From the IMG/VR virus record IMGVR_UViG_3300030372_000757, positions 1 to 31,394 of that record: a stretch of 31,394 nucleotides of DNA, one strand, 5' to 3'. Of the stretch, positions 10,274 through 31,394 are shown one piece after another (position 1 is the stretch's first letter; each line of letters begins with the position of its first letter). The notes below the pieces were generated by a model. The model made no database searches. It was not told the origin of the DNA and was given only the letters and a program-made list of their open reading frames with translations. A program made the translations under genes and the position numbers. The stretch comes from a virus (lineage: Duplodnaviria; Caudoviricetes).

Positions 10274-10274
10274 T

Positions 10275-10499
10275 ATGACATCAGCAGAAAAAGAATGTTT
10301 GCTAAGATTAGAACAGAAGTTAGATTTTGTATCTAAAAATGTAGAAAAAAATTCAAAAGAAATGGGATCAATCAAAAAAGAAGTTTCTGAATTAAAAGCA
10401 CAAGTCAACATGGGAAAGGGAGCTGTGAAAGGTCTTGTCATTGTTGGCTCAATAATAACTGTTATCTTAGGTTTCTTTAAATATGGAGATGGAATGTAA
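10275..10499 (+). CDS. Small coiled-coil protein with a C-terminal transmembrane helix (XhlA/holin-like architecture)
   Basis: LLRLEQKLD...ELKAQVNMGKG followed by a hydrophobic C-terminus; coupled to the holin gene. Confidence 0.6.
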   Translation: MTSAEKECLLRLEQKLDFVSKNVEKNSKEMGSIKKEVSELKAQVNMGKGAVKGLVIVGSIITVILGFFKYGDGM

Positions 10500-10915
10500 T
10501 GATAGGAATGATTGTTGGTGGACTTACAAAAGCAGTTGGTGGTTATCTTGAAAATAAAAGCAAGGAATCTCAAGCTAAATCTAATTTAAAAAAAGCAGAG
10601 ATAGAAGCTAAAACTTCTGTTGCCAAAGCAGTTGCAGAAGGTAAAGTTGATGTACAAAAATTAAATGCAGAGTGGGAGAATAAAGCAGTATCACAAATGG
10701 ATTCCAGTTTTAAAGATGAACTAGCTTTATGTGTACTTCTTTTGCCTGCGTTGCTTGTTTTTTTTGAGCCATTTCAAGATGATGTACAAAAAGGTTTTGA
10801 AATTTTAGGAACACTCCCAGAATATTATCAGAATTTATTGTATATAGCGATTTCAGCTTCATTTGGAATAAAAGGTGTTGGTGGTATAGCACGATTTGTA
10901 AAGGGGAAAAAATAA
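10499..10915 (+). CDS. Holin (3TM, GTA-release holin-like)
   Basis: SSFKDE-hydrophobic helix...GF..L..LPEYY..LLYIAISASFGIKG; basic C-terminus. Confidence 0.7.
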   Translation: MIGMIVGGLTKAVGGYLENKSKESQAKSNLKKAEIEAKTSVAKAVAEGKVDVQKLNAEWENKAVSQMDSSFKDELALCVLLLPALLVFFEPFQDDVQKGFEILGTLPEYYQNLLYIAISASFGIKGVGGIARFVKGKK

Positions 10916-11052
10916 TGTTAGATAAACTAAAGCAAGGCTATGAAAAAGTAAAAGATGTAATAGAAGATATATCTTATAAAGTACCAGATGGATTATGGTT
11001 TATTATAAAATGTTCTGTTATATCTATTGTTTGGATTATTCTTATCTGCTAA
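10915..11052 (+). CDS. 45-aa membrane peptide; not in the ORF track
   Basis: TAATG coupling to the holin; MLDKLKQGYEKVKDVIEDISYKVPDGLWFIIKCSVISIVWIILIC*. Confidence 0.6.
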   Translation: MLDKLKQGYEKVKDVIEDISYKVPDGLWFIIKCSVISIVWIILIC

Positions 11053-11104
11053 CTGCAAAAGCAAATACAAAAATCAAGAGAGCTAATAATAATATTTGTT
11101 CCAT
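11042..11104 (-). CDS. 20-aa hydrophobic peptide; not in the ORF track
   Basis: GGAGATACAAATG start context identical to 23881..23893; MEQILLLALLIFVFAFAVSR*. Confidence 0.55.
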   Translation of the reverse strand: MEQILLLALLIFVFAFAVSR

Positions 11105-11120
11105 TTGTATCTCCGAGTAA

Positions 11121-11145
11121 GTGGGAGCATTTCTGCTCCCTGTTA
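11121..11145 (-). repeat. 25-bp repeat with GGGAGCA-GAAA-TGCTCCC hairpin, copy A
   Basis: Exact reverse complement of 23849..23873; perfect 7-bp stem. Confidence 0.92.
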
Positions 11146-11148
11146 ATA

Positions 11149-11427
11149 TTATTCCTCTATCCAAACTTTTTGTTTTGTAATATCCCAATTATGTTCTTTT
11201 ACACAAAAAACTTGAAGCCATTTTGTTTCTTCATCTTCACAATGAAACAAACATAATTCAACACCATATGCTTCATATTCTTTTTGCACTTCTTCTACTG
11301 TCCAATCATCAGAATCAGATGACTCTCGCCTTTCATACCATTTTCTTTCCCAATATTCATCAATAAGTTCAAACATATTTTTTTCTACTAAATTGTCTAC
11401 TTTTTTTATAAATGTGTATTTAGTCAT
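11149..11427 (-). CDS. Hypothetical acidic, Trp-rich early protein
   Basis: Preceded by the conserved start motif with AGGAG. Confidence 0.75.
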   Translation of the reverse strand: MTKYTFIKKVDNLVEKNMFELIDEYWERKWYERRESSDSDDWTVEEVQKEYEAYGVELCLFHCEDEETKWLQVFCVKEHNWDITKQKVWIEE

Positions 11428-11436
11428 TTTTCCTAT

Positions 11437-11454
11437 CTCCTGTTTAAGTTTTTA
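11437..11454 (-). promoter_or_regulatory. Start-associated motif TAAAAACTTAAACAGGAG
   Basis: Identical to 23558..23575; contains the Shine-Dalgarno sequence. Confidence 0.85.
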
Positions 11455-11455
11455 A

Positions 11456-11857
11456 TTAATAATCTATTTCATCTCCATAGAATTTAGATGACATAAATTC
11501 TTTCTTTGAACTAGGTTCTAAATACGATTTATCTGGGTAAATAAGTACACTTTCTGGTAATTCATATCCCATTACAATCGTGTGCCAATACCTTCCTGTT
11601 GGTGTTTTTCCAATACCTTCTCTAACATACTCAACTACTTTGTAAATGAATATCCCATTTTCTTTGTAAGGGTAGTCATCTTCATCTTCTGGTTTAAACT
11701 TTTGTTCTTCATAAGTCATACTTTCATCAGCCCAATCTTCATAGATGTCATTTCTTTCTTTGCAATATGCGACTTTTAAATCCCAGATGTGTTTTTCTAT
11801 TTCATCATTGTATTTACCAGTTTTTTCATTTCTTAATATATATTTATAAATGTTCAT
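11456..11857 (-). CDS. Hypothetical acidic, Tyr-rich early protein
   Basis: First gene after the consensus promoter and start motif. Confidence 0.78.
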   Translation of the reverse strand: MNIYKYILRNEKTGKYNDEIEKHIWDLKVAYCKERNDIYEDWADESMTYEEQKFKPEDEDDYPYKENGIFIYKVVEYVREGIGKTPTGRYWHTIVMGYELPESVLIYPDKSYLEPSSKKEFMSSKFYGDEIDY

Positions 11858-11867
11858 ATAATTAATA

Positions 11868-11884
11868 TCCTATTTAAGTTTTTA
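11868..11884 (-). promoter_or_regulatory. Start-associated motif TAAAAACTTAAATAGGA
   Basis: Identical to 23316..23332. Confidence 0.85.
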
Positions 11885-11913
11885 TTTATAAGTTGTTATC
11901 AACCTATAAAGAA

Positions 11914-11942
11914 AGTATATAAAATAATGGTATATATGTCAA
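11914..11942 (-). promoter_or_regulatory. Sigma70 promoter A: TTGACA-N17-TATACT
   Basis: Perfect -35, 17-nt spacer, 5/6 match at -10; intergenic. Confidence 0.88.
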
Positions 11943-11968
11943 TAATATATAGCAAATAAATAGGGCTG

Positions 11969-11981
11969 TAAGTGATTGATT
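11969..11981 (-). promoter_or_regulatory. IHF-consensus site AATCAATCACTTA
   Basis: Matches WATCAANNNNTTR with an upstream A/T tract; positionally conserved with 23222..23234. Confidence 0.65.
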
Positions 11982-12030
11982 TATATAAAGAATATAAATT
12001 ATTTTAATTTATTTTAAATTTATTTTTGAA

Positions 12031-12246
12031 TTATTCTTCTTTTTCTGTAGGTTTTATGTTGCTGACTAATATTTTAGCTTGATTCATGTTGCTTAAATGC
12101 AGAAAATAATTTGCAATATTCTTCGTTTTTTCTTCTGAACTTTCTTTCTTCATTTCTTCATTTATCTTTTCAACAGTATTATTTATTTCATCTTGTATTA
12201 TTTTTTTTACATTATCATATTCTACTTGATCATTGATTGTAGTCAT
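12031..12246 (-). CDS. Hypothetical protein
   Basis: GGAG RBS; follows the oxygenase gene. Confidence 0.65.
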   Translation of the reverse strand: MTTINDQVEYDNVKKIIQDEINNTVEKINEEMKKESSEEKTKNIANYFLHLSNMNQAKILVSNIKPTEKEE

Positions 12247-12249
12247 AAT

Positions 12250-12846
12250 TTATCTCCATGATGATTTGCCATAAATCCAACATACTATACACTTGCGTAT
12301 GCCTTTAGTTACAGGTGTTACTCTGTGATTCAAAAAACTTGTGAAAGAAACTAATTTATTTGGCACAGAATTATAAGTTACAATTTCTCCATTGTCGCTA
12401 AAAAACTGCAAATCTCCACCTTCAAAACCTTTATTCAATACCCAGCTAATAGATATTTTTCTCATTGACGCAACTCCAGAGCCTATGTCAGAGTGCCAAT
12501 CGTATTTGCCACCTTCATGGTATTCCAGATATTGAATGTCTTGTATACCAGATAATTCATAATTAAATGTTTTGTTTATATCGACTAAAGCATTTCTGAT
12601 TAGTTCTGCTGTAATAGAATCTTTTTGATGTAGTCGCCAACATTCAACACTTCTCATATGTGAATAGTTTTTGTCATTAGTTGATGTTTTTACTTCTTCA
12701 CCAAAATTAATAACTTCTTTAAGAACTAGATCAGTCATACCATCATTCATCTCTATAGGCACAATGCCATATTCTGAATCTTGATTGTTATTGTAATGGA
12801 TATTATCTTTGAAAAATTCTTGATCTAAGTGTGTAAGTTTGCCCAT
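12250..12846 (-). CDS. 2OG-Fe(II) oxygenase (prolyl 4-hydroxylase / PKHD-like)
   Basis: YDWHSD (HxD), RKIS, FEGGDL, HRVTPVTKGIR (distal His and 2OG-binding Arg). Confidence 0.92.
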   Translation of the reverse strand: MGKLTHLDQEFFKDNIHYNNNQDSEYGIVPIEMNDGMTDLVLKEVINFGEEVKTSTNDKNYSHMRSVECWRLHQKDSITAELIRNALVDINKTFNYELSGIQDIQYLEYHEGGKYDWHSDIGSGVASMRKISISWVLNKGFEGGDLQFFSDNGEIVTYNSVPNKLVSFTSFLNHRVTPVTKGIRKCIVCWIYGKSSWR

Positions 12847-12858
12847 TGATACCTCTTT

Positions 12859-12886
12859 AAAAAACTCCCTCTATTGCTAGAGGGAG
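12859..12886 (-). terminator. Intrinsic terminator
   Basis: CTCCCTCTA-GCAA-TAGAGGGAG 9-bp stem followed by T6 on the minus strand. Confidence 0.75.
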
Positions 12887-12954
12887 AACTTAAAATGCCT
12901 TACAAAAAGGAGCAAGGGCTTGTATGAAAAAATTATCATCTTCATCATAACACA

Positions 12955-13272
12955 TTAAAAAGGAATATCATCATTAAATTCACCTTCTGATTTCTCCATA
13001 GTTGTTTCTGGTTGTGCTGGAGTTAGCTTTTTAGAATTGTCATATTGATATGATTCTCTTTTACCATTATCTGTAATTTCATGTTTGGTAAACTTAACAT
13101 TCAAATAACCTTTTTCTGTTTTCCAGAGTGCCAAGTTATATCCAATACCATCTACATTAACAAGTCCTTTATAAGATGGAGCTTGTGGATTCTCTGAATT
13201 ATTTTTAAAAATATTTCCAGAATTTACTCTGATCTCATAGCCACTTGCAGTCTTGATTGATTTATCTTCCAT
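12955..13272 (-). CDS. Putative single-stranded DNA-binding protein (DUF736-like)
   Basis: GNIFKN...PSYKG.V...ALW core and an acidic DDIPF C-terminus; in the same operon as ERF. Confidence 0.7.
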   Translation of the reverse strand: MEDKSIKTASGYEIRVNSGNIFKNNSENPQAPSYKGLVNVDGIGYNLALWKTEKGYLNVKFTKHEITDNGKRESYQYDNSKKLTPAQPETTMEKSEGEFNDDIPF

Positions 13273-13552
13273 CTTTATTCTCCATATTAAGTTTTTTGTT
13301 AGTTCGTTCTATACACTCATAATGATTTTCTCTATATAAGTTTTTATTTTCGTCAACATAAGTTTTTAAAAATTTCAAAGTCTTATGTATATCTATAGAT
13401 ACATGCAATATTGCATTAGCATTGTCATCTACTGTTTCTAAGAATTTATCCATTTTTTCAATAGTGATATATTCTTGGTGTTGCAATTCTAAATCTCTTG
13501 CATGTGTTTCTTCTGCTTCTTGCACATTTTGATAGCTTTCGTCTTTATCCAT
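13262..13552 (-). CDS. Hypothetical protein
   Basis: Packed in the leftward operon. Confidence 0.65.
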   Translation of the reverse strand: MDKDESYQNVQEAEETHARDLELQHQEYITIEKMDKFLETVDDNANAILHVSIDIHKTLKFLKTYVDENKNLYRENHYECIERTNKKLNMENKDGR

Positions 13553-13553
13553 T

Positions 13554-13655
13554 TTATTTTCCCTGTTTCTTTATCATATGATAATTATAATTTAGTGCTA
13601 TAGCAGCAACAATCAATCCTACAGCAAAGCCAATTATAAAAGATAACCAGCTCAT
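13554..13655 (-). CDS. 33-aa membrane peptide; not in the ORF track
   Basis: ATGA overlap with the upstream ORF; MSWLSFIIGFAVGLIVAAIALNYNYHMIKKQGK*; fills the gap exactly. Confidence 0.6.
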   Translation of the reverse strand: MSWLSFIIGFAVGLIVAAIALNYNYHMIKKQGK

Positions 13656-13855
13656 AAGGAAAGGCTCTCTTTTATATTAATCTGTATTGAATTACCATTC
13701 ATACAAACTGGAACTACATCACATAATGTTTCACAGTGATTGCCATCATGTCGTTCTACAAAAACTGAAAAACGATTTGAATTCATTTGAACTAAACGCA
13801 TTAGGTCATTATTATTTAAGCTATTAGATAGCTCAATTAGCTCTTTGTCAGTCAT
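13652..13855 (-). CDS. Hypothetical protein
   Basis: GAGGT RBS; overlaps its neighbours. Confidence 0.65.
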   Translation of the reverse strand: MTDKELIELSNSLNNNDLMRLVQMNSNRFSVFVERHDGNHCETLCDVVPVCMNGNSIQINIKESLSL

Positions 13856-14030
13856 TATATTTTACCTCTTTTCTATCAATAATATTATTTTTTGCTATAT
13901 CTTCTAACACTTCATTAATATCAATCCTAGTTATTTCTAATAAATCAGAATACTTGAGTAAGTCAGAAACAGACAGATCGTCTGCAACTTCTTTAACTTC
14001 ATCTTTTAAAATACTGCTGTGTATATCCAT
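13848..14030 (-). CDS. Hypothetical protein
   Basis: GGAG RBS; TAATG coupling to ERF. Confidence 0.65.
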   Translation of the reverse strand: MDIHSSILKDEVKEVADDLSVSDLLKYSDLLEITRIDINEVLEDIAKNNIIDRKEVKYND

Positions 14031-14506
14031 TAAATATCTCCCTTGTTAATTTTCTGCACTTTCTTATTTTGCATAGATTGTTGAGCCTTGTTTGCGTCAT
14101 CATCTGTTTCTTCATTGGTGGCTAGTAACAGCATATTTTGATATAGATACCTCTTTCCATAAGTCATGGAACTACCCAGAGCTTGTGGTTTCCTGTCAGA
14201 ATATAAAGTCAGTTCCGATTCAAAAAATTGCATACTTGGTGCATGCGTGATTTTCATTTTATAAAATACTTGATACTGCTCAAGTGAATCTTTATCAACA
14301 TTATTATAAGTTTGCGTAAAGCTGGTCAACAAATCATGTTTTAATAATATTGGCTCACATATCTCAATAATGTCATCAAGGGTTGCGTAAGTGTTCCCAA
14401 AATGTTGATTCTTGCCTTTCTTTGATATACCTACTTTTTGAATCTCTATTCTTGCATTTTTAAATGCTTCTAAGTGTTGATTAGGTAATTTTATTTCATT
14501 GCTCAT
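14030..14506 (-). CDS. erf: ERF-family single-strand annealing protein
   Basis: KNQHFGNTYATLDDI...PQALGSSMTYGKRY...DDDA signature. Confidence 0.9.
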   Translation of the reverse strand: MSNEIKLPNQHLEAFKNARIEIQKVGISKKGKNQHFGNTYATLDDIIEICEPILLKHDLLTSFTQTYNNVDKDSLEQYQVFYKMKITHAPSMQFFESELTLYSDRKPQALGSSMTYGKRYLYQNMLLLATNEETDDDANKAQQSMQNKKVQKINKGDI

Positions 14507-14883
14507 TGTATACTCCTGTTAAGTTTTTGGATTCTTTCATTAAGTTTGTTGTATATAAATCTTTGTTCTATCTCTGCAATACTTTTCATTATTGGATCAT
14601 TTGTGAAAAGCATAATGCAGTAATCAATAAAACCATGAATGGCTCTATCGTCATATTGTTCTTTAAATTCATACCAATTTCTCATAATAGATTCTTTGCT
14701 ATAAAATTTTAAAGAAATATAATTATAAAGTTCAGCACAATTAATTATGCAAGGTCTATAGAATTGATAGTCTTGCCAGATAACTTCGGAACTAGATGTA
14801 GCAACAGCAAGTTCTTTAATCAAATCATCTATGACACTATCAAGAACAATTCCTTTTGCTACAATTCCAATATGTCTGCTCAT
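14503..14883 (-). CDS. Hypothetical protein, first gene of the leftward operon
   Basis: ATGA overlap with ERF; no recognisable motif. Confidence 0.6.
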   Translation of the reverse strand: MSRHIGIVAKGIVLDSVIDDLIKELAVATSSSEVIWQDYQFYRPCIINCAELYNYISLKFYSKESIMRNWYEFKEQYDDRAIHGFIDYCIMLFTNDPIMKSIAEIEQRFIYNKLNERIQKLNRSIQ

Positions 14884-15011
14884 TGTCTGCTATATGATTT
14901 ATTATTCATAAATAACATTATAATTAAATTATATGGATATGCAAGTTATAAATGGACTTATTTTATATATATGGTAAGATTATTATACCAAAATAGTATA
15001 AACAGGAGATA
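14884..15011. promoter_or_regulatory. Divergent early control region
   Basis: AT-rich gap between divergent operons; candidate leftward TTGCAT-N16-TATAAT (14917..14944) and rightward TGGACT-N16-TAAGAT (14953..14980). Confidence 0.5.
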
Positions 15012-15209
15012 TTGATGAAATTCAACGAGTTTTTAAAGGAAGAACAATTAAGTATTGCTAGATTTTCTAAGCAAACAGGTCTAAATGAAGCCACAGTAAC
15101 TAAATGGAAATATAATGGGGTAATACCTAGAAAGCCAGAAATGCTGGTGGTGTATAAATTTACAGAAGGTAAAGTTACACCAAATGATTTTTATGGGATC
15201 AATCAATGA
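15012..15209 (+). CDS. Cro-like helix-turn-helix regulator
   Basis: SIARFSKQTGLNEATVTKW...P...TEGKVTPNDFY; AGGAG RBS, ATG at 15015 likely. Confidence 0.85.
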   Translation: MMKFNEFLKEEQLSIARFSKQTGLNEATVTKWKYNGVIPRKPEMLVVYKFTEGKVTPNDFYGINQ

Positions 15210-15787
15210 GTTTTGAAGCATTAGCTTGGGGAGTAAAGCAGTCTCCAAAGAACCCAATCTCTAAGTTGGTGCTTCTTATGATTTGTAATTATGCTAATGA
15301 GAAAGGCGAAGCCTATCCAAGTCAAGAACATTTAGCAAAGTTATGTGAATGTTCTAAAAGATCCGTTGTTAGACATATACAGGAATTAGAAAAACAAAAT
15401 TTTATATCCATACGCAAAGAAAAGAATGGTGCATATGGTTTTAATCTTTATAAATTAAATATAGGGTTAGTGCCAGATATGCACTTAGCTAGTGCCAGAG
15501 TGGCACACAATACTCAAGATAAACATATAACATCAAAATTTGAAATCTTTTGGGATAAAGTTCCACGAAAGATTGCGAAAAAGAAATGTAAAAGTATATA
15601 TAATAATCTGGTAAAGTCTAAAGAAGTAAGCGAAGATGAATTGATAAGTGCTATGGAAAAATATGCTGCAAGTGTCAAACATACATCACCAGCTTTTATC
15701 GTTCATGGTGCAACTTGGCTGAATCAAGGAAGGTGGGAAGATAAGATAGAGGTTAAAGTAAAAAACAAGAACTGGTTAGCTGGATAA
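15206..15787 (+). CDS. Replication initiator with an N-terminal winged HTH
   Basis: KLVLLMICNYAN..G.AYPSQEHLA...SKRSV and C-terminal FW...PRK...ATWLNQGRWED. Confidence 0.82.
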   Translation: MSFEALAWGVKQSPKNPISKLVLLMICNYANEKGEAYPSQEHLAKLCECSKRSVVRHIQELEKQNFISIRKEKNGAYGFNLYKLNIGLVPDMHLASARVAHNTQDKHITSKFEIFWDKVPRKIAKKKCKSIYNNLVKSKEVSEDELISAMEKYAASVKHTSPAFIVHGATWLNQGRWEDKIEVKVKNKNWLAG

Positions 15788-15812
15788 AAACTCAAATAAT
15801 TTGGAGCAGACA

Positions 15813-16670
15813 ATGAGCAAAAAACTAGAAGGCATTTATACTTGCCGAGATATATATAAAGATATTAAAAATTTGTATGATGGTAAAACACAAAAGCAGT
15901 ATGAAACAGGCTTTGATAATCTTGATCCATTACTAAAAATTATCAAGCCTTCTTTCATGCTGATTACTGGTACACCGAATAGTGGAAAGTCATCTTTCAC
16001 TCTTGACTTAGCTCAACAACTTGCTCGTTTGCATGATTTTAAATTCTGTATTTATTCTCCAGAAAGTTCACTAAGCCGAAATGTAGCAAGGCTAGTTGAG
16101 AAATATTGCGAGAAGCCATTTGATAAAATGTTCAGTAATAGAATAACCGAGGAAGAATTAAATCACGCATTGGCTTTTATCAATGAGCATTTTTACTTTA
16201 TTGATATGAAAGATGATAGCCCAGATATTAAATGGATATTGGAAAAGGCTGAAATATGCAGACAAGAGTTTGGTATAGATTGTTTGATAACTGATCCATA
16301 CAATGAAATAAATCCAGCTAGAGCAAGTTTAAGAGAAGATGAACATATCTCCATTCTTATATCAGATATTAAAAGGTGGAACAGAGAACACAATATGATA
16401 ACTATGATGGTGGCTCACCCAACAAAACAAACTAGAACAGCCGAAGGTCAGTTTGTGGTTAATTCACTTTATGATGTATCTGGCTCTGCACATTGGAATA
16501 ATAAAGCTGATGTTGGCATTATTGTTACTAGAGATTATGAAGATGAATCAACCCTTATAAGGATTGCTAAGATTAGAGAGATTGATGTACAAGGTACGAT
16601 TGGAGAATGTAAAATGAGATGGAGTTCAGCTAAGAGAGTATTTATACCAGACATGAACTACGAGGGTTAA
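15813..16670 (+). CDS. SF4 replicative helicase (T7 gp4/Twinkle-like), helicase domain only
   Basis: Walker A GTPNSGKS, LITDPYN, VAHPTK, LYDVSGSAHWNNKAD; GGAG RBS favours ATG 15813 over TTG 15801. Confidence 0.88.
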   Translation: MSKKLEGIYTCRDIYKDIKNLYDGKTQKQYETGFDNLDPLLKIIKPSFMLITGTPNSGKSSFTLDLAQQLARLHDFKFCIYSPESSLSRNVARLVEKYCEKPFDKMFSNRITEEELNHALAFINEHFYFIDMKDDSPDIKWILEKAEICRQEFGIDCLITDPYNEINPARASLREDEHISILISDIKRWNREHNMITMMVAHPTKQTRTAEGQFVVNSLYDVSGSAHWNNKADVGIIVTRDYEDESTLIRIAKIREIDVQGTIGECKMRWSSAKRVFIPDMNYEG

Positions 16671-16672
16671 TT

Positions 16673-17194
16673 ATGATTAGATTTCCAAATAAAAAATATA
16701 AAACTATCTATGCTGATCCAGCATGGAATGAAGCTGGAGCTGGTAAAGTGAAAAGAGGTGCTGACAGGCATTATCCTTTAATGAAAACAAAAGATATTAA
16801 AGAACTGCCTGTTCAAGATATTGCTGATAATGATTGTTGGCTTTATATGTGGGTAACTAATAATTTTTTAAAAGATGGTTTAGAAGTTATGGAGCATTGG
16901 GGTTTTAGATACATAACAAATTTAGTTTGGGCTAAGACTGATTTTTCTCCAAGTTCTTTTGGGTTAGGCTATTATTTTAGAGGGCAACATGAAATATGCT
17001 TGTTTGGGATAAAAGGTAAATTAGAGCCATTGGTTAAAAGCGAAAGCACTTTAATATTAAAACCAAAGACTATCCATTCTAAAAAGCCAATAGAATTTTA
17101 TGAGAAGATTGAAAGTGTATCACATGCTCCATATATAGAACTTTTTGCAAGAAACACAAGAGATGGTTGGGATTCATGGGGGAATGAAATATGA
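16673..17194 (+). CDS. MT-A70-family adenine methyltransferase
   Basis: IYADPAW, LYMWVTN, WGFRY, GYYFRGQHE, HSKKP, IELFAR, GWDSWGNE. Confidence 0.9.
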   Translation: MIRFPNKKYKTIYADPAWNEAGAGKVKRGADRHYPLMKTKDIKELPVQDIADNDCWLYMWVTNNFLKDGLEVMEHWGFRYITNLVWAKTDFSPSSFGLGYYFRGQHEICLFGIKGKLEPLVKSESTLILKPKTIHSKKPIEFYEKIESVSHAPYIELFARNTRDGWDSWGNEI

Positions 17195-17448
17195 TTAAGA
17201 AAACAGTAACTAAGCTGTGGCAAGGCAAGTATTGTAGTATCAGAGATTATGAACTTACAAAAGCAATCAAGAAAGGTGGGTTAATATTACACTACAAAGA
17301 CAAACAGATGATTATTTATCGAGATGAATTGACTAGATTAAAGCCAACTGGTAAGAAGATACAATCAAACTATAAAGGCAGTTATAGGTTGGTAGATATA
17401 CTGTTTAAGCCAGAGGTAGATGATTTAAAACAAAGTAAATTGTTTTGA
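17191..17448 (+). CDS. Hypothetical basic protein
   Basis: 4-nt overlaps with both methyltransferase genes. Confidence 0.65.
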   Translation: MIKKTVTKLWQGKYCSIRDYELTKAIKKGGLILHYKDKQMIIYRDELTRLKPTGKKIQSNYKGSYRLVDILFKPEVDDLKQSKLF

Positions 17449-18197
17449 ATATGCAGTTAATAGAAGGAGATTGTTTAGAGATACTGCCAACTCTAAAAGA
17501 TAAAAGTATTGATCTAATACTTACTGATCCACCTTATGGAACGACAGCTTGTAAATGGGATAGTATAATTCCATTTGAGCCAATGTGGAAAGAGTTAAAA
17601 AGAATTATAAAACAAAATGGAGCAATAGTATTATTTGGTAGTGAGCCTTATAGTTCATATTTAAGAACATCAAATATAAATTGGTTTAAATATGATTGGA
17701 TATGGGAGAAGCCTAGAGGAGTTAATTTTCTAAATTATAAATATCAACCTTCAAAAAATTATGAAATTGTATCTGTTTTTTCTGATGGAGCTACATCTTT
17801 TGTTAAAAATAATTCTAATTGTCCATATAATCCACAAATGACTAAAGGTAAGGCATATAATACAAGACAGGGAAAAGGTGGAGAAGCAATAGTTAGAGAG
17901 GGAAGTAGAATAGGAAAAAATATAATAACTAAAAACGAAGGTACAAGATATCCAAATGCAATACAAAAATTTAACTTTGATTTGGATAAATTACACCCAA
18001 CACAAAAACCAGTAGCTTTGTTAGAATATTTAATTAAAACCTACACAAAAGAAAATGAAACTGTTTTAGATTTTACAATGGGAAGTGGCTCTACAGGAGT
18101 AGCTTGTAAGCATTTAAATAGAAAGTTTATAGGTATTGAAAAAGACGAGAAGTATTTTAAGATTGCACAAGATAGGATTAATTTTATTTTATGTTGA
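17445..18197 (+). CDS. N6-adenine/N4-cytosine DNA methyltransferase (beta class)
   Basis: DPPY before HPTQKP and LDFTMGSGSTG. Confidence 0.93.
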   Translation: MNMQLIEGDCLEILPTLKDKSIDLILTDPPYGTTACKWDSIIPFEPMWKELKRIIKQNGAIVLFGSEPYSSYLRTSNINWFKYDWIWEKPRGVNFLNYKYQPSKNYEIVSVFSDGATSFVKNNSNCPYNPQMTKGKAYNTRQGKGGEAIVREGSRIGKNIITKNEGTRYPNAIQKFNFDLDKLHPTQKPVALLEYLIKTYTKENETVLDFTMGSGSTGVACKHLNRKFIGIEKDEKYFKIAQDRINFILC

Positions 18198-18230
18198 AAT
18201 AATTTTATTTTTACCTTATAAAAGGTATAT

Positions 18231-18614
18231 ATGCCTAAAATAGTCAACAAAACAGAAGAAAACGCAAGAATGGTAGTTCATTTATCTGGGCTTGGATTAC
18301 CACATGAGCAGATATGTTCTATCTTAAACATATCAAAGCCATCTCTTTATAAATATTATGATGAAGAACTCATTAAAGGCAAAGCTACTGCTAATGCTCA
18401 AATATCAGAAAATCTTTTTAAGATAGCAACAGGAACAGGCAGAGAAGCTGTAACAGCATGTATATTTTGGTTAAAAACTCAAGCTAGATGGACTGAGAAA
18501 CAAGTATTGGAGATTCAAGATGGCACAGAGCAAGATGACAAGTTCAAGGAACTTATCACAGACATTCAAAGAGCTAAACTCACAGAAAAAGACAGCGACA
18601 CTACTATTAACTGA
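18231..18614 (+). CDS. terS: Terminase small subunit
   Basis: N-terminal HTH, EL..GK..AN...LF..A, A.IFWLK...W motif; overlaps terL. Confidence 0.8.
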   Translation: MPKIVNKTEENARMVVHLSGLGLPHEQICSILNISKPSLYKYYDEELIKGKATANAQISENLFKIATGTGREAVTACIFWLKTQARWTEKQVLEIQDGTEQDDKFKELITDIQRAKLTEKDSDTTIN

Positions 18615-19803
18615 TTGGTATACCAAAGCCAGAAAGAATCAAATAGTTGTTGATGAAGATGACTATAATATACAATTATTTTTAGCTGGTAGAGGTTGGG
18701 GAAAAACAAAATGTGGAGCTATGGATATAATCCAATATTGTTTATTAAATTCAAATGTTATTTGTGGTGTTATTGCTCCAACACATGGAGATTTAAGAAA
18801 GATATGTTTTCAAGGTGAATCTGGAATATTGTCTGTATTGGATAAAGACTTACTAGCTGAATCTGGATATAACAAGTCAGAAAGTGAGATAACCTTCCAA
18901 AATAACTCAAAAATCTTAGGACTGCCAGCGATTGAGCCAGACAGGTTGCGTGGTGTTCAGTTTCATAGAGCTTGGTGCGATGAACTTGCGTCTTGGCGAT
19001 ATAGGGAAACATTTGACAACTTAATGATGGCTTTGCGACTTGGAGAATCTCCTAAATGTATTATTACCACAACTCCTAGACCAACAGAGCTTATCAAAGA
19101 ATTAGCAGTTAGATCAGACACCAAAATAATTAAAGGAAATACCTTTGAGAATATAGATAACCTTGCACCATCAGCTATTAAAATGCTTAAAGAAAGATAT
19201 GAAGGCACAAGGCTTGGGCGACAAGAACTTTACGCAGAAATATTAGAAGATATAGAAGGTGCATTGTTTCATTCTGCTAACATAGACCAGAACAGAATAG
19301 AAATTACACCAGACATGCAACGCATTGTTATTGCTGTTGATCCAGCAGTTACAGCTAATTCTAATTCTGATGAAACAGGAATTATTGTTGCTGGTAGAGG
19401 TGTTGATAATCATTTTTACATTTTAGAAGACAAATCTGGTGTATTTAGCCCAGATGTTTGGATAAAAAGGGCAATAGAGTTGTATTATAAGTTTGACGCA
19501 GATAGAATAGTTTGTGAAGTCAACAATGGTGGCGACTTAATAGAAAAGTTGTTAAGGGTGCAAGATGTTAATATACCTTATTCATCTGTTAGGGCGACAA
19601 GGGGAAAGATGTTAAGAGCAGAGCCAATAAGTGCATTATATGAGCAAGGGAAAGTTCACCATGTGGGATATTTTAAGGGGTTGGAAGAACAAATGTGTAG
19701 TTACACACCAGATACAGTAAAAAGCCCAGACAGATTAGACGCACTTGTTTGGGGAATTACATCATTGATGAACTCTGGCAAAGCAATTTTTAGAATCAGT
19801 TGA
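18520..19803 (+). CDS. terL: Terminase large subunit
   Basis: AGRGWGKT, AWCDE, TTTP, VIAVDPA, SPDRLDALVW; start may be 18535. Confidence 0.95.
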   Translation: MAQSKMTSSRNLSQTFKELNSQKKTATLLLTDWYTKARKNQIVVDEDDYNIQLFLAGRGWGKTKCGAMDIIQYCLLNSNVICGVIAPTHGDLRKICFQGESGILSVLDKDLLAESGYNKSESEITFQNNSKILGLPAIEPDRLRGVQFHRAWCDELASWRYRETFDNLMMALRLGESPKCIITTTPRPTELIKELAVRSDTKIIKGNTFENIDNLAPSAIKMLKERYEGTRLGRQELYAEILEDIEGALFHSANIDQNRIEITPDMQRIVIAVDPAVTANSNSDETGIIVAGRGVDNHFYILEDKSGVFSPDVWIKRAIELYYKFDADRIVCEVNNGGDLIEKLLRVQDVNIPYSSVRATRGKMLRAEPISALYEQGKVHHVGYFKGLEEQMCSYTPDTVKSPDRLDALVWGITSLMNSGKAIFRIS

Positions 19804-19813
19804 GGATTATATA

Positions 19814-22021
19814 ATGGGATTATTTGATAGATTCAGAAAACAAACAGAGCAGATTCAAACCAAAGAAGCTCCAAGAGTGCTGTTTAACAAGATACAAGCA
19901 TATCAAGGCAAGAACAATAGAAAGTACAAAGACTATGCCAAAGAAGGTTATCAAGAGAACGCAATCGTCTATAAATGCGTATCTATGATTGCTAACAACG
20001 CAAGTGCAGTTAATATAAAAGTATTTGCTGGAGAGAACGAACTAGATTCCCACCCATTAATTTCTTTGTTAGCCAGACCAAATCCTTTGCAATCTGGAGT
20101 GGAGTATTTTCATTCATTGATTAGTTATCTATTAATATCTGGCAACTCTTATATGATTAAAGATAAAGACACAACTGCACCCACAGAATTATATTTGCTT
20201 AGACCAGACAGGATTCATATCAAGACAGGGACATCTATGATTCCAGAAGCCTATCAATACAAGATTGATAATAAGGTAATTAATTCATACCAAGTCAATC
20301 CATTAACAGGTTATTCACAGCTTAAACACATCAAGCTCTGGAATCCATTAGATGATTTTTATGGGTTATCTCCTATTGTTGCGTCAGCTTATAACATTGA
20401 CCAGCACAACTTGGCTGGATTGCACAATGTAGGATTATTGAAAAATGGTTGTACTCCATCTGCTATGTTGAAGTTTCAACCCACAGATGAAACAGGTGCG
20501 TCTGCAACTTTGACAGATGACCAGAGGGCTATGTTGCTCCAAGACTTGGAAACAAGATTTTCTTCTAGTACAAATGCTGGGCGACCAATGTTGCTTGAAG
20601 GCGACTTTGATTATGTCCAAATGGGATTAAATCCAAAGGATATGGATTTTCTTGAATTGATGAATATGTCAGCCAGAGAGATTGCGTTGTGTTTTGGTGT
20701 ACCAGCTCAATTAGTTGGTATTGCAGATCAGACATATGCCAATGTCGCAGAAGCTAGATTATCGTTATATGAAGAAACTATTATACCTTTACTGCAACGA
20801 CTAGAATCAGATTTAAATGAATACTTAGCTCCACTTTATGATGGGGATTTAAGTATTAGATATGACATAGATTCTATTCCAGCAATGGCAGAGAAACGCA
20901 AACAGATTTATGCCAATGTTAGTCAAGGAGTGCAACAAGGTATCTTGACCAGAAACGAAGCTAGAGAACGACTAGGACTTGAGCCAATAGATGGTGGCGA
21001 TAGCTTATTAGTACCTTCAAACTTATTCCCATTGGGCGAGGTAGATGATTCTCCACCTTCACAGCCAGACGAAGATGAAGATGAATCTAAGTTTTATGAA
21101 GATGAATGGGAAGAACTTTATGGAAAAGATACAGAGGAAAAGTACCACGATCCGAAAAAGAAAAAGAAGCCAAAGAAAAGAAAAGAAATGTTGGAAGAAG
21201 ATGTGTTTGATAATGAGCAAGAAGCATTGGATAGAGCCGAAGTAATTGGTTGTACTGGCACACATACAATGGATAAAGATGGGCAGACTGTTTATATGCC
21301 TTGTTCTACCCACGCAGAATATGATGAACTGGTTGGAGAGAAAGCCTTAGATGATTTAGATTTAACAGCCACCGAAGGCATGAAAGAAGAAGCTAGGAGA
21401 GGGCTGGACTGGCGAAAAAAGTTCAATAGGGGTGGCACTCAAGTGGGTGTTGCTCGAGCAAATCAAATCGTAAGTGGTGAAAGAATGTCGCCAGATACAG
21501 TTTTAAGAATGTTCTCATTTTTTTCCAGACATGAAGTCGATAAGCAAGGTCAAGGATTTAAGCCAAGTCAAAAAGGTTATCCAAGTGCTGGAAGAATAGC
21601 TTGGTCATTATGGGGTGGTGATTCTGGATTTAGCTGGTCAAGGCAGAAAAGAAATCAGATTATGGCAGAAAGAGAAAAGTCATTTGATGATAGGGAAATA
21701 AAAGGTGCATATGGCTTGACAGACGCAGTAGAAAAAGGGTTGCGTGAAAAGGTCAAAGAGCATAACGAAAAGCATGGAGATAAAAAGGGAAAGCGAGTAA
21801 ATCTTAGAATGTTAGCTTCATCTTTTAAAAGAGGGGTGGGTGCATACAGGAATAATCCACAATCTGTTAGACCAAGTGTTAGAGCAAGTGGTGGTGAGGA
21901 CAGATGGGCATATGCTCGTGTTAATGCTCTATTATATGCAGTTAGAACAGGTAAATTTAGAAGTGGCAAGTTTGATTTAGACTTGTTGCCAAGAGACCAC
22001 CCATTATCATCAAAGGATTAG
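19814..22021 (+). CDS. HK97-family portal protein with a long C-terminal extension
   Basis: LLARPNP, LLISGNSY, GLSP, NAGRPMLLE, IALCFGVP, TRNEARERLGL within the first ~410 aa, then ~325 extra aa. Confidence 0.93.
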   Translation: MGLFDRFRKQTEQIQTKEAPRVLFNKIQAYQGKNNRKYKDYAKEGYQENAIVYKCVSMIANNASAVNIKVFAGENELDSHPLISLLARPNPLQSGVEYFHSLISYLLISGNSYMIKDKDTTAPTELYLLRPDRIHIKTGTSMIPEAYQYKIDNKVINSYQVNPLTGYSQLKHIKLWNPLDDFYGLSPIVASAYNIDQHNLAGLHNVGLLKNGCTPSAMLKFQPTDETGASATLTDDQRAMLLQDLETRFSSSTNAGRPMLLEGDFDYVQMGLNPKDMDFLELMNMSAREIALCFGVPAQLVGIADQTYANVAEARLSLYEETIIPLLQRLESDLNEYLAPLYDGDLSIRYDIDSIPAMAEKRKQIYANVSQGVQQGILTRNEARERLGLEPIDGGDSLLVPSNLFPLGEVDDSPPSQPDEDEDESKFYEDEWEELYGKDTEEKYHDPKKKKKPKKRKEMLEEDVFDNEQEALDRAEVIGCTGTHTMDKDGQTVYMPCSTHAEYDELVGEKALDDLDLTATEGMKEEARRGLDWRKKFNRGGTQVGVARANQIVSGERMSPDTVLRMFSFFSRHEVDKQGQGFKPSQKGYPSAGRIAWSLWGGDSGFSWSRQKRNQIMAEREKSFDDREIKGAYGLTDAVEKGLREKVKEHNEKHGDKKGKRVNLRMLASSFKRGVGAYRNNPQSVRPSVRASGGEDRWAYARVNALLYAVRTGKFRSGKFDLDLLPRDHPLSSKD

Positions 22022-22024
22022 CTT

Positions 22025-22426
22025 ATGTTTAAATTTGGAAAAGGCTCATTAGAAAAATTAGATACAGTACACCCAGACTTAAAGTTAGTTATGAAAGAAG
22101 TTATCAAGCTAACACCGATTGATTTTGGTATTACAGAGGGCATAAGAAGTCCAGAAAGAGCCGAACAACTTAAAGCTGAAGGTCTTAGCAAAGCTGGAGC
22201 TAAGTCATTGCATTGTCAAGGCAAGGCTGTTGATATTGTTTGTTACAATGGTGGCAAGATAACTTGGGAGCTAGAATTTTATGAAGCTGTTGCTGGAGTG
22301 GTTGGAGAAGTTTGCGAAGTCCTAGATATTAAAATAAGATGGGGTGGTAGCTGGGTAACAGGAGATTTCAAATTGAATAGGGATATGAACTTTATAGACG
22401 CAGTTCACTTTGAAATAATTGAGTAA
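22025..22426 (+). CDS. M15-family peptidase endolysin (L-Ala-D-Glu type)
   Basis: VHPDL, EGIRS, SLH..G.AVD, IRWGG.W, D..HFE zinc motifs. Confidence 0.88.
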   Translation: MFKFGKGSLEKLDTVHPDLKLVMKEVIKLTPIDFGITEGIRSPERAEQLKAEGLSKAGAKSLHCQGKAVDIVCYNGGKITWELEFYEAVAGVVGEVCEVLDIKIRWGGSWVTGDFKLNRDMNFIDAVHFEIIE

Positions 22427-23199
22427 TGTCAAAAATTAGGATTAACAGACGAAAAGATTACAGAGAACAATTAAAACTATATCTTAATCTTTCTAAAAGT
22501 CTAAATGCTAAAACTAAAAAATTATTAAGAAAAACAGCCAGAATAGCAGAACGAGAGTTTATTGAGTTTGGTGATATGTATTATGTTTTCTTAGAAGATT
22601 TTTCTAATGATTTATATAAAATATTATCAACACATTATCGTTCAGTTATTACCACCACCAACGAAAGATTAATTAAGCAGAGAGAAACCAAGCAAGAAGA
22701 AGAGATAGATATTATTGTTGCCACTTATATTGCAGAAGTAACAGCCAATAAAGTTGCTGATATATCGCAAACCACAAGAAAACAATTAAGACAAGCGATA
22801 AAGAAAGGAATTGCAGATGGTTTATCTATACCACAAATAGCAAAACTGATCCGACAAAACAGGTCTTTTGCACCTTATCGAGCTACTATGATTGCTAGAA
22901 CTGAAACGCATTCTGCTATGAATTATGCCAATCATGAAATATCTGGAAAGTTAGGATTAAATAGACCTGTAAAAGAATGGAATAGTGCCTTAGATGACAG
23001 AACTAGGGCTTGGCACAGGGGTATGAATGGCACAACTGTCAGCCGAGATGATATGTTTAAAGTTATGACACCGATTGCTGGTGGTGGATTTGTAGAAAAA
23101 AGAATGAATTACACAGGCGATATGAATGGTGGTGCTTTAAATGTCATAAATTGTCGGTGTTTTACCCTATATTATGATTCTGAAGATGAAATAATTTAA
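22426..23199 (+). CDS. Head morphogenesis / minor head protein (SPP1 gp7 / Mu gpF-like)
   Basis: RATMIARTE, KEW...DDRTR.WH, INCRC. Confidence 0.9.
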   Translation: MSKIRINRRKDYREQLKLYLNLSKSLNAKTKKLLRKTARIAEREFIEFGDMYYVFLEDFSNDLYKILSTHYRSVITTTNERLIKQRETKQEEEIDIIVATYIAEVTANKVADISQTTRKQLRQAIKKGIADGLSIPQIAKLIRQNRSFAPYRATMIARTETHSAMNYANHEISGKLGLNRPVKEWNSALDDRTRAWHRGMNGTTVSRDDMFKVMTPIAGGGFVEKRMNYTGDMNGGALNVINCRCFTLYYDSEDEII

Positions 23200-23221
23200 A
23201 TTAATTTTAAATACCTAAACA

Positions 23222-23234
23222 AATCAAACACTTA
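23222..23234 (+). promoter_or_regulatory. IHF-consensus site AATCAAACACTTA
   Basis: Matches WATCAANNNNTTR; conserved with copy A. Confidence 0.65.
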
Positions 23235-23259
23235 CAACCACATTTATTTATATATATAT

Positions 23260-23288
23260 TTGACATATATATAATTATTATATATACT
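23260..23288 (+). promoter_or_regulatory. Sigma70 promoter B: TTGACA-N17-TATACT
   Basis: Same hexamers and spacing as promoter A. Confidence 0.88.
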
Positions 23289-23315
23289 TTATATATAAGT
23301 TAATAACAACTTATA

Positions 23316-23343
23316 TAAAAACTTAAATAGGAGCAAGAAAATG
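23316..23343 (+). repeat. Start-associated repeat TAAAAACTTAAATAGGAGCAAGAAAATG
   Basis: 27/28 identical to 23558..23585. Confidence 0.9.
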
Positions 23344-23556
23344 AGCAAAGTACAAAAATTTTTAGAAAAAGTAAAAAATTGTAATTTATCAAAAGTAGAA
23401 AATAGCAATTTAGAAAAGCTAAATGATAATTTGCATTTAATTAATACAATATCAAAAACATCTGAAAGAGTTAATGTAGAAAAAGTTCAAAATTTAGTAC
23501 ATATAGAAATGTACAAAAGGGGTTGTTTTGATGTAGTAAAGCCAAAAAATATATAA
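23341..23556 (+). CDS. Hypothetical protein (cassette B gene 1)
   Basis: Strong RBS within the repeat. Confidence 0.7.
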   Translation: MSKVQKFLEKVKNCNLSKVENSNLEKLNDNLHLINTISKTSERVNVEKVQNLVHIEMYKRGCFDVVKPKNI

Positions 23557-23557
23557 A

Positions 23558-23585
23558 TAAAAACTTAAACAGGAGCAAGAAAATG
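23558..23585 (+). repeat. Start-associated repeat TAAAAACTTAAACAGGAGCAAGAAAATG
   Basis: 27/28 identical to 23316..23343. Confidence 0.9.
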
Positions 23586-23846
23586 AAAACTTTAGAATGG
23601 AATGAAAAAGATTTAAAAGAAATAACAAGGCTTAGATTAGTAAGTGATGTTGGACACCCTTGCTGGGATATATCATATTGTTGGGGTATAGATACTGATG
23701 GAAATAAGGTAAGAGTTATTTTACCTTTTGAACAAGTTAGAAAAGGCAAAGGAAACATACATAAAACTATTATAGAACATGCAAAAAAAGATAAGGTTTT
23801 TGCTAAAGGTCTTAATATATTTAATGTAATTTCTTGCTTTCAATAA
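23583..23846 (+). CDS. Hypothetical protein (cassette B gene 2)
   Basis: Strong RBS within the repeat; RLRLVSD..HPCWDISYCWG. Confidence 0.75.
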   Translation: MKTLEWNEKDLKEITRLRLVSDVGHPCWDISYCWGIDTDGNKVRVILPFEQVRKGKGNIHKTIIEHAKKDKVFAKGLNIFNVISCFQ

Positions 23847-23848
23847 AC

Positions 23849-23873
23849 TAACAGGGAGCAGAAATGCTCCCAC
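23849..23873 (+). repeat. 25-bp repeat with GGGAGCA-GAAA-TGCTCCC hairpin, copy B
   Basis: Exact inverted copy of 11121..11145. Confidence 0.92.
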
Positions 23874-23890
23874 AACATTAGGAGATACAA

Positions 23891-24070
23891 ATGAAAGATT
23901 GGATTAACATTAAAGAAGTTAGAAAAAAAGTTAAAGAAAAAATTGGAAATTCAGTAATTGTTAATAAAAGCAATTCTCAAGTTATGCAGATTGCTTATGA
24001 AAATAATATTGTGTCTGCAAATGATATGCACATTTGGGATATTCAAGAACAATGCAGAATTGGACATTAA
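23891..24070 (+). CDS. 59-aa hypothetical protein (cassette B gene 3); not in the ORF track
   Basis: AGGAG RBS; MKDWINIKEVRKKVKEKIG...QEQCRIGH*. Confidence 0.65.
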   Translation: MKDWINIKEVRKKVKEKIGNSVIVNKSNSQVMQIAYENNIVSANDMHIWDIQEQCRIGH

Positions 24071-24098
24071 TTTTAACAGTTAGAAGGAGTATTTTAAT

Positions 24099-24218
24099 AT
24101 GATAGATAAACACAACCAACATGAAGAATATATGACAGGCTGGGAAATTGTGGCAAGTATCTTGTTATTTGCTATGATATTGGGAACATGCTGGTTATTT
24201 TTATTGATAACTTATTAA
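24099..24218 (+). CDS. 39-aa membrane peptide (cassette B gene 4); not in the ORF track
   Basis: AAGGAG RBS; MIDKHNQHEEYMTGWEIVASILLFAMILGTCWLFLLITY*. Confidence 0.62.
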   Translation: MIDKHNQHEEYMTGWEIVASILLFAMILGTCWLFLLITY

Positions 24219-24241
24219 AGATTTAAACTTGCTAAAGTTTT

Positions 24242-24280
24242 GGTGTGGAGTTTTTGCTAATTCTCTGCACCTTTTTTTTT
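24242..24280 (+). terminator. Intrinsic terminator closing cassette B
   Basis: GGTGTGGAG...CTCTGCACC stem (two G-U pairs) followed by T9. Confidence 0.72.
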
Positions 24281-24282
24281 GC

Positions 24283-24312
24283 TTGTAATTAATGCTCAAG
24301 TATTGCTATCAT
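24283..24312 (+). promoter_or_regulatory. Candidate promoter for the capsid genes
   Basis: TTGTAA-N18-TATCAT with an extended TG, just after the terminator. Confidence 0.35.
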
Positions 24313-24345
24313 AAAGGAACTTTTACTTGACAAGGAATTTAAGTT

Positions 24346-25014
24346 ATGTCTGATGAACATTTTGAAATAGTGAATGATGTTTTAGACCTTGAATGTGATT
24401 ATAAAGGTATTGATACAGAGGAAGATGGTAGCTTTGAAGGCTATGCTTCTGTATTCGGCAATAAAGATTTAGGTAATGATGTTATCAAACAAGGTGCATT
24501 TGCCAAATCAATCTACGACAAGAAACCCAAACAAATTAAACTGCTGTATCAGCACAAGACTGATGAGCCTATTGGTGTAATTGATTCTCTGGAAGAAGAT
24601 AAGCGAGGATTAAAGATCAAAGGCAGACTTGCTATGGGAACACAGAAAGGCAAGGAAGTGTATGAGCTGATGAAGATGGGTGCATTAGATTCTATGTCAA
24701 TCGGCTATAGGCTAAAACCAGAAGATTACAAATATAGCGATAAGTTAAAGAAAAGAACAATTACGAATTTGGATTTAATGGAAATATCAATGGTAACTTT
24801 TCCAATGAATCCAAAAGCTAAGATTACGAAAGTTAAATTAGCTGAAATGAATGTGAGAGAGATAGAACATTACTTGCGTGATGTGGGATTAATGTCTAGT
24901 TCTGTTGCAAAACAAAGTGCTAACATATTATATAAATCATTTAACCCAGAGGTGAATGAGCAACGAGATGTTGTCGATAGTATTAAGCATTTGATTGAAA
25001 CAATTAAACATTAA
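24346..25014 (+). CDS. HK97-family prohead protease
   Basis: FEGYASVF, LLYQH, PIG, MSIGY, EISMVTFPMN. Confidence 0.95.
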   Translation: MSDEHFEIVNDVLDLECDYKGIDTEEDGSFEGYASVFGNKDLGNDVIKQGAFAKSIYDKKPKQIKLLYQHKTDEPIGVIDSLEEDKRGLKIKGRLAMGTQKGKEVYELMKMGALDSMSIGYRLKPEDYKYSDKLKKRTITNLDLMEISMVTFPMNPKAKITKVKLAEMNVREIEHYLRDVGLMSSSVAKQSANILYKSFNPEVNEQRDVVDSIKHLIETIKH

Positions 25015-25025
25015 TGGAGTTTATT

Positions 25026-26237: not shown

Positions 26238-26248
26238 GGGAGATTATT

Positions 26249-31358: not shown

Positions 31359-31394
31359 TTTAAAATTATTATGATAATCTAAGTATTATTTTAA
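31341..31394 (+). repeat. 54-bp exact direct repeat, copy 2
   Basis: Identical to 162..215. Confidence 0.95.

Follow-up and report, generated by a model that had tools for sequence, protein, structure and literature searches.

The window analysed here is a whole record, all 31,394 bases of IMGVR_UViG_3300030372_000757, a small uncultured marine phage of HK97-like siphophage type, and it carries two arrays of small genes in opposite orientations: cassette A, on the minus strand beside the early genes, and cassette B, on the plus strand within the head operon. Comparing these arrays with those of relatives, we found a constant scaffold, variable cargo, a pool of cargo genes shared between the sites, and switch points that lie inside the linkers joining one gene to the next. 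We consider it probable that the arrays are promoter-led slots filled from a single pool of small genes, with exchange by short-homology recombination in the leader, the ribosome-binding-site (RBS) linker and the hairpin, probably catalysed by the phage's own ERF-family annealing protein.

The first-pass annotation described twin inverted cassettes with the same ordered parts, and every part it named is present in the order given. Each cassette opens with a leader (A, 11868..11982, minus strand; B, 23221..23332, plus strand), and the homology of about 115 bp proposed for the pair holds, with identity at 98 of 115 positions (85%). The leaders comprise an IHF-like box (11969-11982 in A, 23221-23234 in B), a sigma70-like predicted promoter (11914-11942 and 23260-23288), an inverted repeat (11887-11908 and 23294-23315) and an RBS linker (11868-11884 and 23316-23332). 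The promoter reads TTGACA-N17-TATACT in both, and the two are the top-scoring of 83 promoter-like sites within 10000-26500 (11/12). The scaffold of leader A is conserved in relatives, and the IHF-like box is retained even in their diverged leaders; that label presumes a consensus that we take to be WATCAANNNNTTR. The inverted repeats adjoin the predicted transcription start, and their core is likewise kept in diverged leaders; they are possibly operators for the Cro-like protein encoded at 15012-15209. Readings of the repeat as dif-, CtrA- or attC-like were set aside after visual comparison with the respective consensus sequences.

Within the arrays, genes are joined by linkers of two kinds. 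The RBS linker lies between the first two genes of each array, as TAAAAACTTAAACAGGA in A (11438..11454, minus strand) and at 23558..23574 (plus strand) in B. The 16-mer AAAAACTTAAAYAGGA occurs in exactly four perfect copies in the window, two per cassette, and with up to three mismatches it has 11 matches, whereas 100 shuffles averaged 2.87 and never exceeded 6. The hairpin linker, said by the first-pass annotation to be an identical 25-bp element in both cassettes, is just that (11121..11145, minus strand, and 23849..23873, plus strand). It has a 7-bp stem and a GAAA loop, and in 30 local shuffles exact inverted matches reached only 14-18 nt at their longest. Cassette B is closed by a predicted intrinsic terminator (24242..24280, plus strand; 9-bp stem, T9).

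The genes carried by this shared scaffold differ. Cargo consists of A1 (11456..11857, 133 aa) and A2 (11149..11427, 92 aa) on the minus strand, and of B1 (23341..23556, 71 aa), B2 (23583..23846, 87 aa) and B3 (23891..24070, 59 aa) on the plus strand. The dissimilarity noted earlier between the two sets is borne out, with a best E of 0.11 among the seven small open reading frames (ORFs) of A and B. Three cargo genes had been assigned to each cassette, an assignment that stands for these five. The supposed third gene of A (11042..11104, minus strand), a 20-aa hydrophobic peptide, is better regarded as resident, because it is kept in 19 of 23 distinct A intervals, cassette-free ones included; in L084, L099 and L102 it directly follows the upstream resident gene (12031..12246, minus strand, 71 aa, in the window) and the cassette is absent. 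In B, a fourth ORF had been overlooked, a near-resident hydrophobic peptide gene (24099..24218, plus strand, 39 aa) whose family, F0, occurs in 18 of 45 distinct B intervals. Also missed were the resident character of the last genes, further slots at the main early promoter and at a helicase-small terminase site, hammerheads in the linkers of relatives, and a simpler single-gene moron at site B of a distant subclade.

To describe variation among relatives, we collected intervals from two hairpin scans, which gave 38 A and 99 B intervals (some contigs having been fetched twice) that collapsed to 23 and 45 distinct ones. Between MuF and protease, the gap ranged from 521 to 3885 bp in those relatives, 58 of 80, that have both genes. 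Arrays bearing the scaffold numbered 44 distinct cases with 61 cargo families, mostly two to four genes each and with a median length of 89 aa; constant linkers, varying slot genes and breakpoints at the linkers, as the first-pass annotation had predicted for related genomes, are thus what these arrays display. In L001, whose protease is 98% identical to the window's in DNA, the leader, linker and hairpin are the same and the cargo is different. Cargo is not fixed at the two loci: among distinct B intervals whose proteases agree at 95% or more in DNA, just 4 of 30 pairs have a cargo family in common, a count not independent of relatedness.

The proposal of slot-based gene exchange is supported by the evidence for one pool, with 17 of 92 ORF families found at both A and B, seven of them at 90-96% DNA identity (89.7% counted as 90). 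The highest cross-locus pair reaches 96.3%. As to the cargo of the window, the family of A1 also occurs at locus B in L045, that of A2 at site B in L049 and that of B3 at locus A in L179; B1 stands first in locus A of L082 (94.4% DNA identity over 216 nt), and B2 matches a locus A gene of L131 (90.5%). The pool extends to other positions. In G001 and G003 the main early promoter region (a promoter-like site at 14917..14944, minus strand, in the window) is leader-like and precedes genes found in other slots too, and in G012 a further array lies between the helicase and small terminase genes, with B2 there placed between two hairpins.

We next located the positions at which genes switch. Of the 110 strings spanning a hairpin junction, 20 were dropped, half of them for want of a parsable start codon and half because they looked out of clade; the other 90 gave 82 distinct combinations of 61 upstream with 44 downstream clusters, which are loosely drawn. 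Unrelated hairpin junctions have a median of 26 exact bases in common (1914 pairs). The bases preceding the hairpin mostly go with whichever gene lies upstream, and the spacer that follows goes with the downstream one, so that the switch falls within the hairpin core. The same first 8 bases occur in 10 of the 44 downstream families, compared with 0 of 28 rightward core genes, so common sequence can reach into the first codons. Retention of neighbours was assessed after leaving out 10 families (MuF extensions, their convergent partners, and resident or spurious ORFs): the downstream neighbour was retained in 1 of 34 pairs across linkers versus 16 of 51 across plain junctions, and the upstream neighbour in 1 of 74 versus 16 of 79. 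In runs of three other studies, contigs begin and stop at linkers, among them a 267-base contig consisting of B1 and its two RBS linkers, and five contigs link the second RBS linker to the hairpin via other DNA; we read such short-sided joints as probable traces of other genomes having the same linkers. The single RNA-labelled run gave coverage at the protease end only.

These data suggest the following course of events. Each array would be expressed as one early transcript from a promoter read by the host sigma factor, with the linkers kept mainly as RNA signals, a strong RBS and a read-through hairpin protecting the 3' end of the upstream message; in some relatives, cleavage by a hammerhead would then release each gene on an RNA of its own. 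Because the linkers are repeated, 20-27 identical bases would lie at every gene boundary, and homologous exchange by ERF in these shared bases, or in the longer leader, would allow recombination among co-infecting relatives or among slots to replace, add or delete whole genes in register with the RBS. The array itself would have grown out of a single-gene moron slot whose terminator had lost its U-tract. The candidate catalyst is encoded at 14030..14506 on the minus strand (PF04404, E 4.9e-20; phrog_155), and Pfam recognizes ERF in the window, in five of five near-complete relatives searched and in two of five partial ones. The median of 26 shared bases fits the published exact-pairing minimum of lambda Red-beta, 23-27 bp (31-34 for RecA), and Erf of phage D3 is reported to equal Red-beta in efficiency on 800-bp repeats (PMC3945230). 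Swaps occur at three unrelated motifs, namely the leader/RBS, the hairpin and the terminator of a distant subclade, which supports homology-driven exchange since that is what it predicts.

Several points weigh against this reading. It is based on sequence comparison, and selection by itself favours breakpoints at gene boundaries. Neighbours also changed in 35 of 51 pairs at plain junctions, the retention count took a few hairpin junctions for plain ones, and pair counts depend on relatedness with loose clusters. The 23-27 bp figure given in the cited work is Red-beta's and not ERF's (PMC3945230). No tblastn match to ERF was obtained in G003, nor in G005, a record interrupted within its early region; protein family searches of the window identified no partner exonuclease, and assembled contigs showed neither an excised circle nor a crossover intermediate. 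The site B array lies on the opposite strand in L022, L023 and L039, which needs another kind of event. Finally, in the distant subclade site B turns over equally fast without these linkers, which are therefore not required for turnover.

The foremost alternative is that the linkers are expression signals only (an RBS, a leaky terminator or a processing site), and that rare illegitimate events or long flanking homology bring genes in, with selection leaving breakpoints at gene boundaries, so that linkers mark exchange without causing it. The varying neighbours at plain junctions and the variable site B of the distant subclade speak for this view, as do weaker forms of the RBS motif ahead of the core early genes ERF (14513-14528) and SSB. 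It is further favoured by the hairpin variants, most of which still pair (compensatory changes of two pairs or of one, an extra pair, a G-U wobble and one mismatch), implying selection on RNA structure; kept pairing also agrees with the preferred reading. Against it, a single hairpin allele is found at 70 of 82 junctions where structure alone would permit many, flanking bases sort with the adjacent gene around a switch inside the core, neighbour retention is far lower across linkers, and near-identical genes at different loci have only the linker in common. We regard this explanation as unlikely.

A host- or helper-supplied site-specific system seems improbable, whether it is an integron-like recombinase, an HUH enzyme for which the folded hairpin is the substrate, or entry directed by IHF beside the leader. 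The fixed 22-nt palindromic core would suit it, as would the inverted repeat adjoining the promoter and the retention in diverged leaders of the IHF-like box. In addition, first slots are more varied than last ones in 27 B arrays (23 versus 12 families); yet the last slot is often just the resident gene. No tyrosine recombinase was found in the window or in near-complete relatives (PF00589, 0/5), and none of the 30 out of 54 further ORF clusters that were scanned contained a recombinase or transposase, the other 24 being already-scanned cargo or spurious-looking. None of 185,579 prokaryote genomes contains the 24-nt hairpin element, and the swaps at three unrelated motifs also count against such a system.

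The first-pass annotation also suggested that the inverted copies could flip the segment of about 11 kb between them, and inversion of this segment as a genetic switch is an explanation we find very hard to sustain. The 115-bp leaders, 85% identical and in inverted orientation together with the identical 25-bp element, would offer substrates, and Erf is reported to invert 78%-identical 800-bp repeats in lambda (PMC3945230). Gene order and orientation were nonetheless the same in 13 of 13 fetched relatives, 10 of them near-complete and only about four with the scaffold at both sites; neither a joint of MuF with the holin side nor one of the 2OG gene with the protease, the junctions an inversion would create, was present among loci L001-L273, and no such joint appeared in the 15 contig joints looked at out of 46. 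An RNA route, in which single-gene RNAs bounded by hairpins or hammerheads are circularised or reverse-transcribed and then re-inserted, is scarcely credible: predicted hammerheads do stand at gene boundaries, two of them around one gene in L030, but they are absent from most junctions and from both window arrays, and no reverse transcriptase was found in the window or in the five hammerhead-bearing records (one near-complete).

The linkers themselves form a graded series, from the RBS alone, through the hairpin with a short RBS and the hairpin with the RBS linker, to the hairpin with a hammerhead and the RBS linker; the window has the first two forms only. The hairpin is likely a read-through or 3'-protecting element, because a sense-strand U-tract is usually absent: at least five T within nine bases after the stem were present at 19 of 82 hairpin junctions, and the window element scored as a terminator on the antisense strand only, which for the copy in A is the plus strand, facing the late operon. 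Predicted hammerheads of type III follow the hairpin in some relatives, with an Rfam match (RF00008, E 2.4e-6, 37.6 bits) below the gathering level of 48.5; at that level Rfam gave no match in 20 sources. The predicted ribozymes show the expected architecture of a CUGANGA and GAAA core, a U-H cleavage site and three stems, with stem III open. In six of six sequences the core is invariant; 94.9% of cells are paired, and 8 of 13 pairs show two-sided change. A model built from the clade gave 12 strong matches in 100 sources, training sequences and duplicates counted, with the next best at 21 bits. Eleven of the 12 lie after a hairpin, 10 of the 12 are then followed by the RBS linker, and one gene in L030 is flanked by two. 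In the window no hammerhead was detected by Rfam or, at E up to 1, by the clade-built model.

A more ambitious extension is speculative and, in our judgement, rather unlikely: the hairpin-hammerhead-RBS adaptor would be at once an expression insulator and a minimal recombination handle, new genes would enter beside an IHF-bound leader through a polarised route dedicated to that purpose and then circulate among two to four slots, and the 61 families would serve as a fast-changing set of anti-defence or host-takeover weapons directed at an abundant marine host. Separately, nine low-GC contigs without a match to the tested window core genes (L156, L178, L189, L196, L203, L224, L230, L235 and L238) carry a related hairpin immediately before an RBS and start codon, and this linker type may extend beyond the clade.

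An origin for the arrays is suggested by a distant subclade (protease about 68-71% identical in DNA) that lacks the linker motifs of this clade. Its site B holds a single gene, different in almost every genome, that is preceded by a promoter-RBS leader of the subclade's own and followed by a terminator that stays constant. Variation there indicates that site B is an older moron slot. The 5' arm of the subclade's terminator resembles that of the hairpin, and the hairpin linker may have arisen from such a terminator by loss of the U-tract, permitting growth of the array.

The closest known system appears to be the promoter-early stem-loop (PeSL) cassettes described for the T4-type myoviruses RB49/phi1, PST/T4 and nt-1/KVP40 (PMC2839356, PMC4122927), and the arrays described here would work in a manner like PeSL shuffling. 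As the cited accounts present them, PeSLs are repeated intergenic elements made of a sigma70-like promoter, a G/C-rich stem-loop and a Shine-Dalgarno (SD) sequence, at which small ORFans are gained, lost or replaced between close relatives, as they are here; so far as those accounts go, no dedicated recombinase has been found in either system. The present phage is a 31-kb siphophage, not a T4-type myovirus, and it lacks the composite promoter, stem-loop and SD element of those accounts, having one promoter per array, in the leader only, and, within the array, separate, promoterless hairpin and RBS linkers of about 20-27 shared bases. In further contrast, two to four sites draw on one pool, one of them inside the head operon, the hairpin mostly has no sense U-tract, and the linker can hold a predicted type III hammerhead. 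PeSL cassettes are further characterised by a stem-loop that acts as a transcription terminator and by excised mini-circles; here 19 of 82 hairpin junctions have a terminator-like run of T, and the assembled contigs contained no excised circle.

Cassette B resembles a lambdoid moron, a gene with its own promoter and terminator among head genes (PMC2839356), and the first-pass annotation's comparison in these terms is supported by the predicted promoter (23260-23288) and terminator (24242-24280) lying between MuF and protease; site B of the distant subclade is exactly of moron type. The difference is that morons, in the cited account, are not thought to move via their regulatory flanks (PMC2839356), whereas in the present case the gene varies between unchanging flanks and the slot holds a multi-gene array. 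Hammerheads have also been described clustering around genes in prophage-like regions, for example ardA of Agrobacterium (PMC3088659), where, according to that report, a polycistronic message has them in the gaps between small phage genes, immediately ahead of start codons, a placement shared by the predicted ones of our relatives. The predicted hammerheads of the present clade are of type III, are optional between hairpin and RBS linker, are interchangeable with hairpin-only linkers, and are missing from the window.

A further comparison, with integrons, rests on shared layout. Integron arrays have one promoter, ordered single-gene units, a palindromic element after each gene and a promoter-proximal position that is the most variable; the arrays described here likewise have one promoter, single-gene units, a palindrome between genes and a varied first slot. 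They are nevertheless not integrons: neither an integron integrase nor a tyrosine recombinase was found here, the palindrome, a 22-nt perfect hairpin with a 7-bp stem and a 4-nt GAAA loop, appears distinct from an attC-type site, and several junctions use the non-palindromic RBS linker.

For the cargo, size and position, helped by the ardA precedent (PMC3088659), make an anti-defence role a reasonable guess. Family searches put a name to almost none of it and speak neither for nor against the anti-defence or host-takeover cargo that the first-pass annotation considered possible. Across the 92 ORF families, Pfam gave a match passing a meaningful cut-off in four only (HTH_39, DUF3846, DUF2958 and DUF7717), PHROGs matched cargo to unknown-function families only, and PADLOC, whose models cover defence and not anti-defence, returned 0 of 45. 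A sequence search of the Protein Data Bank with the cargo gave chance matches only. Homologues formed two clusters for A1, three for A2 and nine for B2. The structure model of A1 was poor (pLDDT 45); that of B2 was confident (pLDDT 87.5), and its fold matches two uncharacterised proteins, gp40 of phage PhiJL001 and a Corynebacterium phage protein. In run X7, A1-like DNA is present at a depth of about 80-95 and B2-like DNA at 15-22; because the window flanks are barely covered there, these genes appear to ride in other genomes in that run.

Site A in L094 (5351-6784) is taken by an opposite-strand 478-aa ORF with a weak HATPase match and has no cassette. At site B, cargo runs leftward in L022, L023, L039, L041, L049 and L064, the first three having a divergent promoter region. 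The MuF head morphogenesis gene, identified by family searches (22426..23199, plus strand, in the window), forms the upstream flank of site B, and the prohead protease gene, likewise identified (24346..25014, plus strand), its downstream flank. Ten of the 45 distinct B intervals (L005, L011, L023, L026, L029, L037, L054, L080, L160 and L212) have a MuF that is longer by 307-435 residues. Each extension is then followed by a small convergent ORF (families F7 and F9), and one contains an HExxH motif with weak metallopeptidase matches; the pair resembles what we take to be a MuF polymorphic toxin with its immunity gene.

The window otherwise encodes head, tail, lysis and replication genes, including an HK97-type head, a siphovirus tail tube, a tape measure and Dit; the leftward early operon contains the ERF annealase, SSB and a 2OG-Fe(II) oxygenase, and protein family searches of the window detected no integrase or tyrosine recombinase. 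The portal gene (19814-22021) has a long C-terminal extension (735 aa), and an endolysin gene (22025-22426) lies between it and MuF, distant from the holin-like genes. The window ends share a repeat (3-215 and 31182-31394) that is 83% identical and exact only near the end, which we read as circular permutation, the two ends perhaps stemming from different strains. Between helicase and terminase, G005 (L282:201-4150) carries QueE-like radical SAM, QueD/PTPS, QueC and FolE genes and a ParB-domain gene, a probable cluster for 7-deazaguanine DNA modification in place of the window's methyltransferases. Runs containing the window are marine; contigs of runs X1 and X3 span both cassettes with 0 differences, and either run may be its source. 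No close cultured phage was found (best capsid match 45%, terminase about 44%), nor any real match to cassette B DNA among cultured phages, and no prophage form turned up in genome contigs, which gave a single 43% match and lack the hairpin. The tail fibre domain is common to phages of SAR11, SAR116, OM43 and cyanobacteria. In the literature searched, which took in few subscription papers, there was no account of the clade or of its linker.

Beyond the T4-type phages, these arrays put the old "linker" model of modular evolution in phages to an unusually clean natural test: the points of exchange are resolved to about 26 bases, and the same genome encodes a candidate enzyme. The graded series from a single moron slot, through a hairpin array, to linkers with hairpin and hammerhead suggests how an expression signal may become an exchange adaptor. 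Finally, the 61 families of small, mostly unannotated phage proteins are marked as fast-turnover and provide a list for functional screens.

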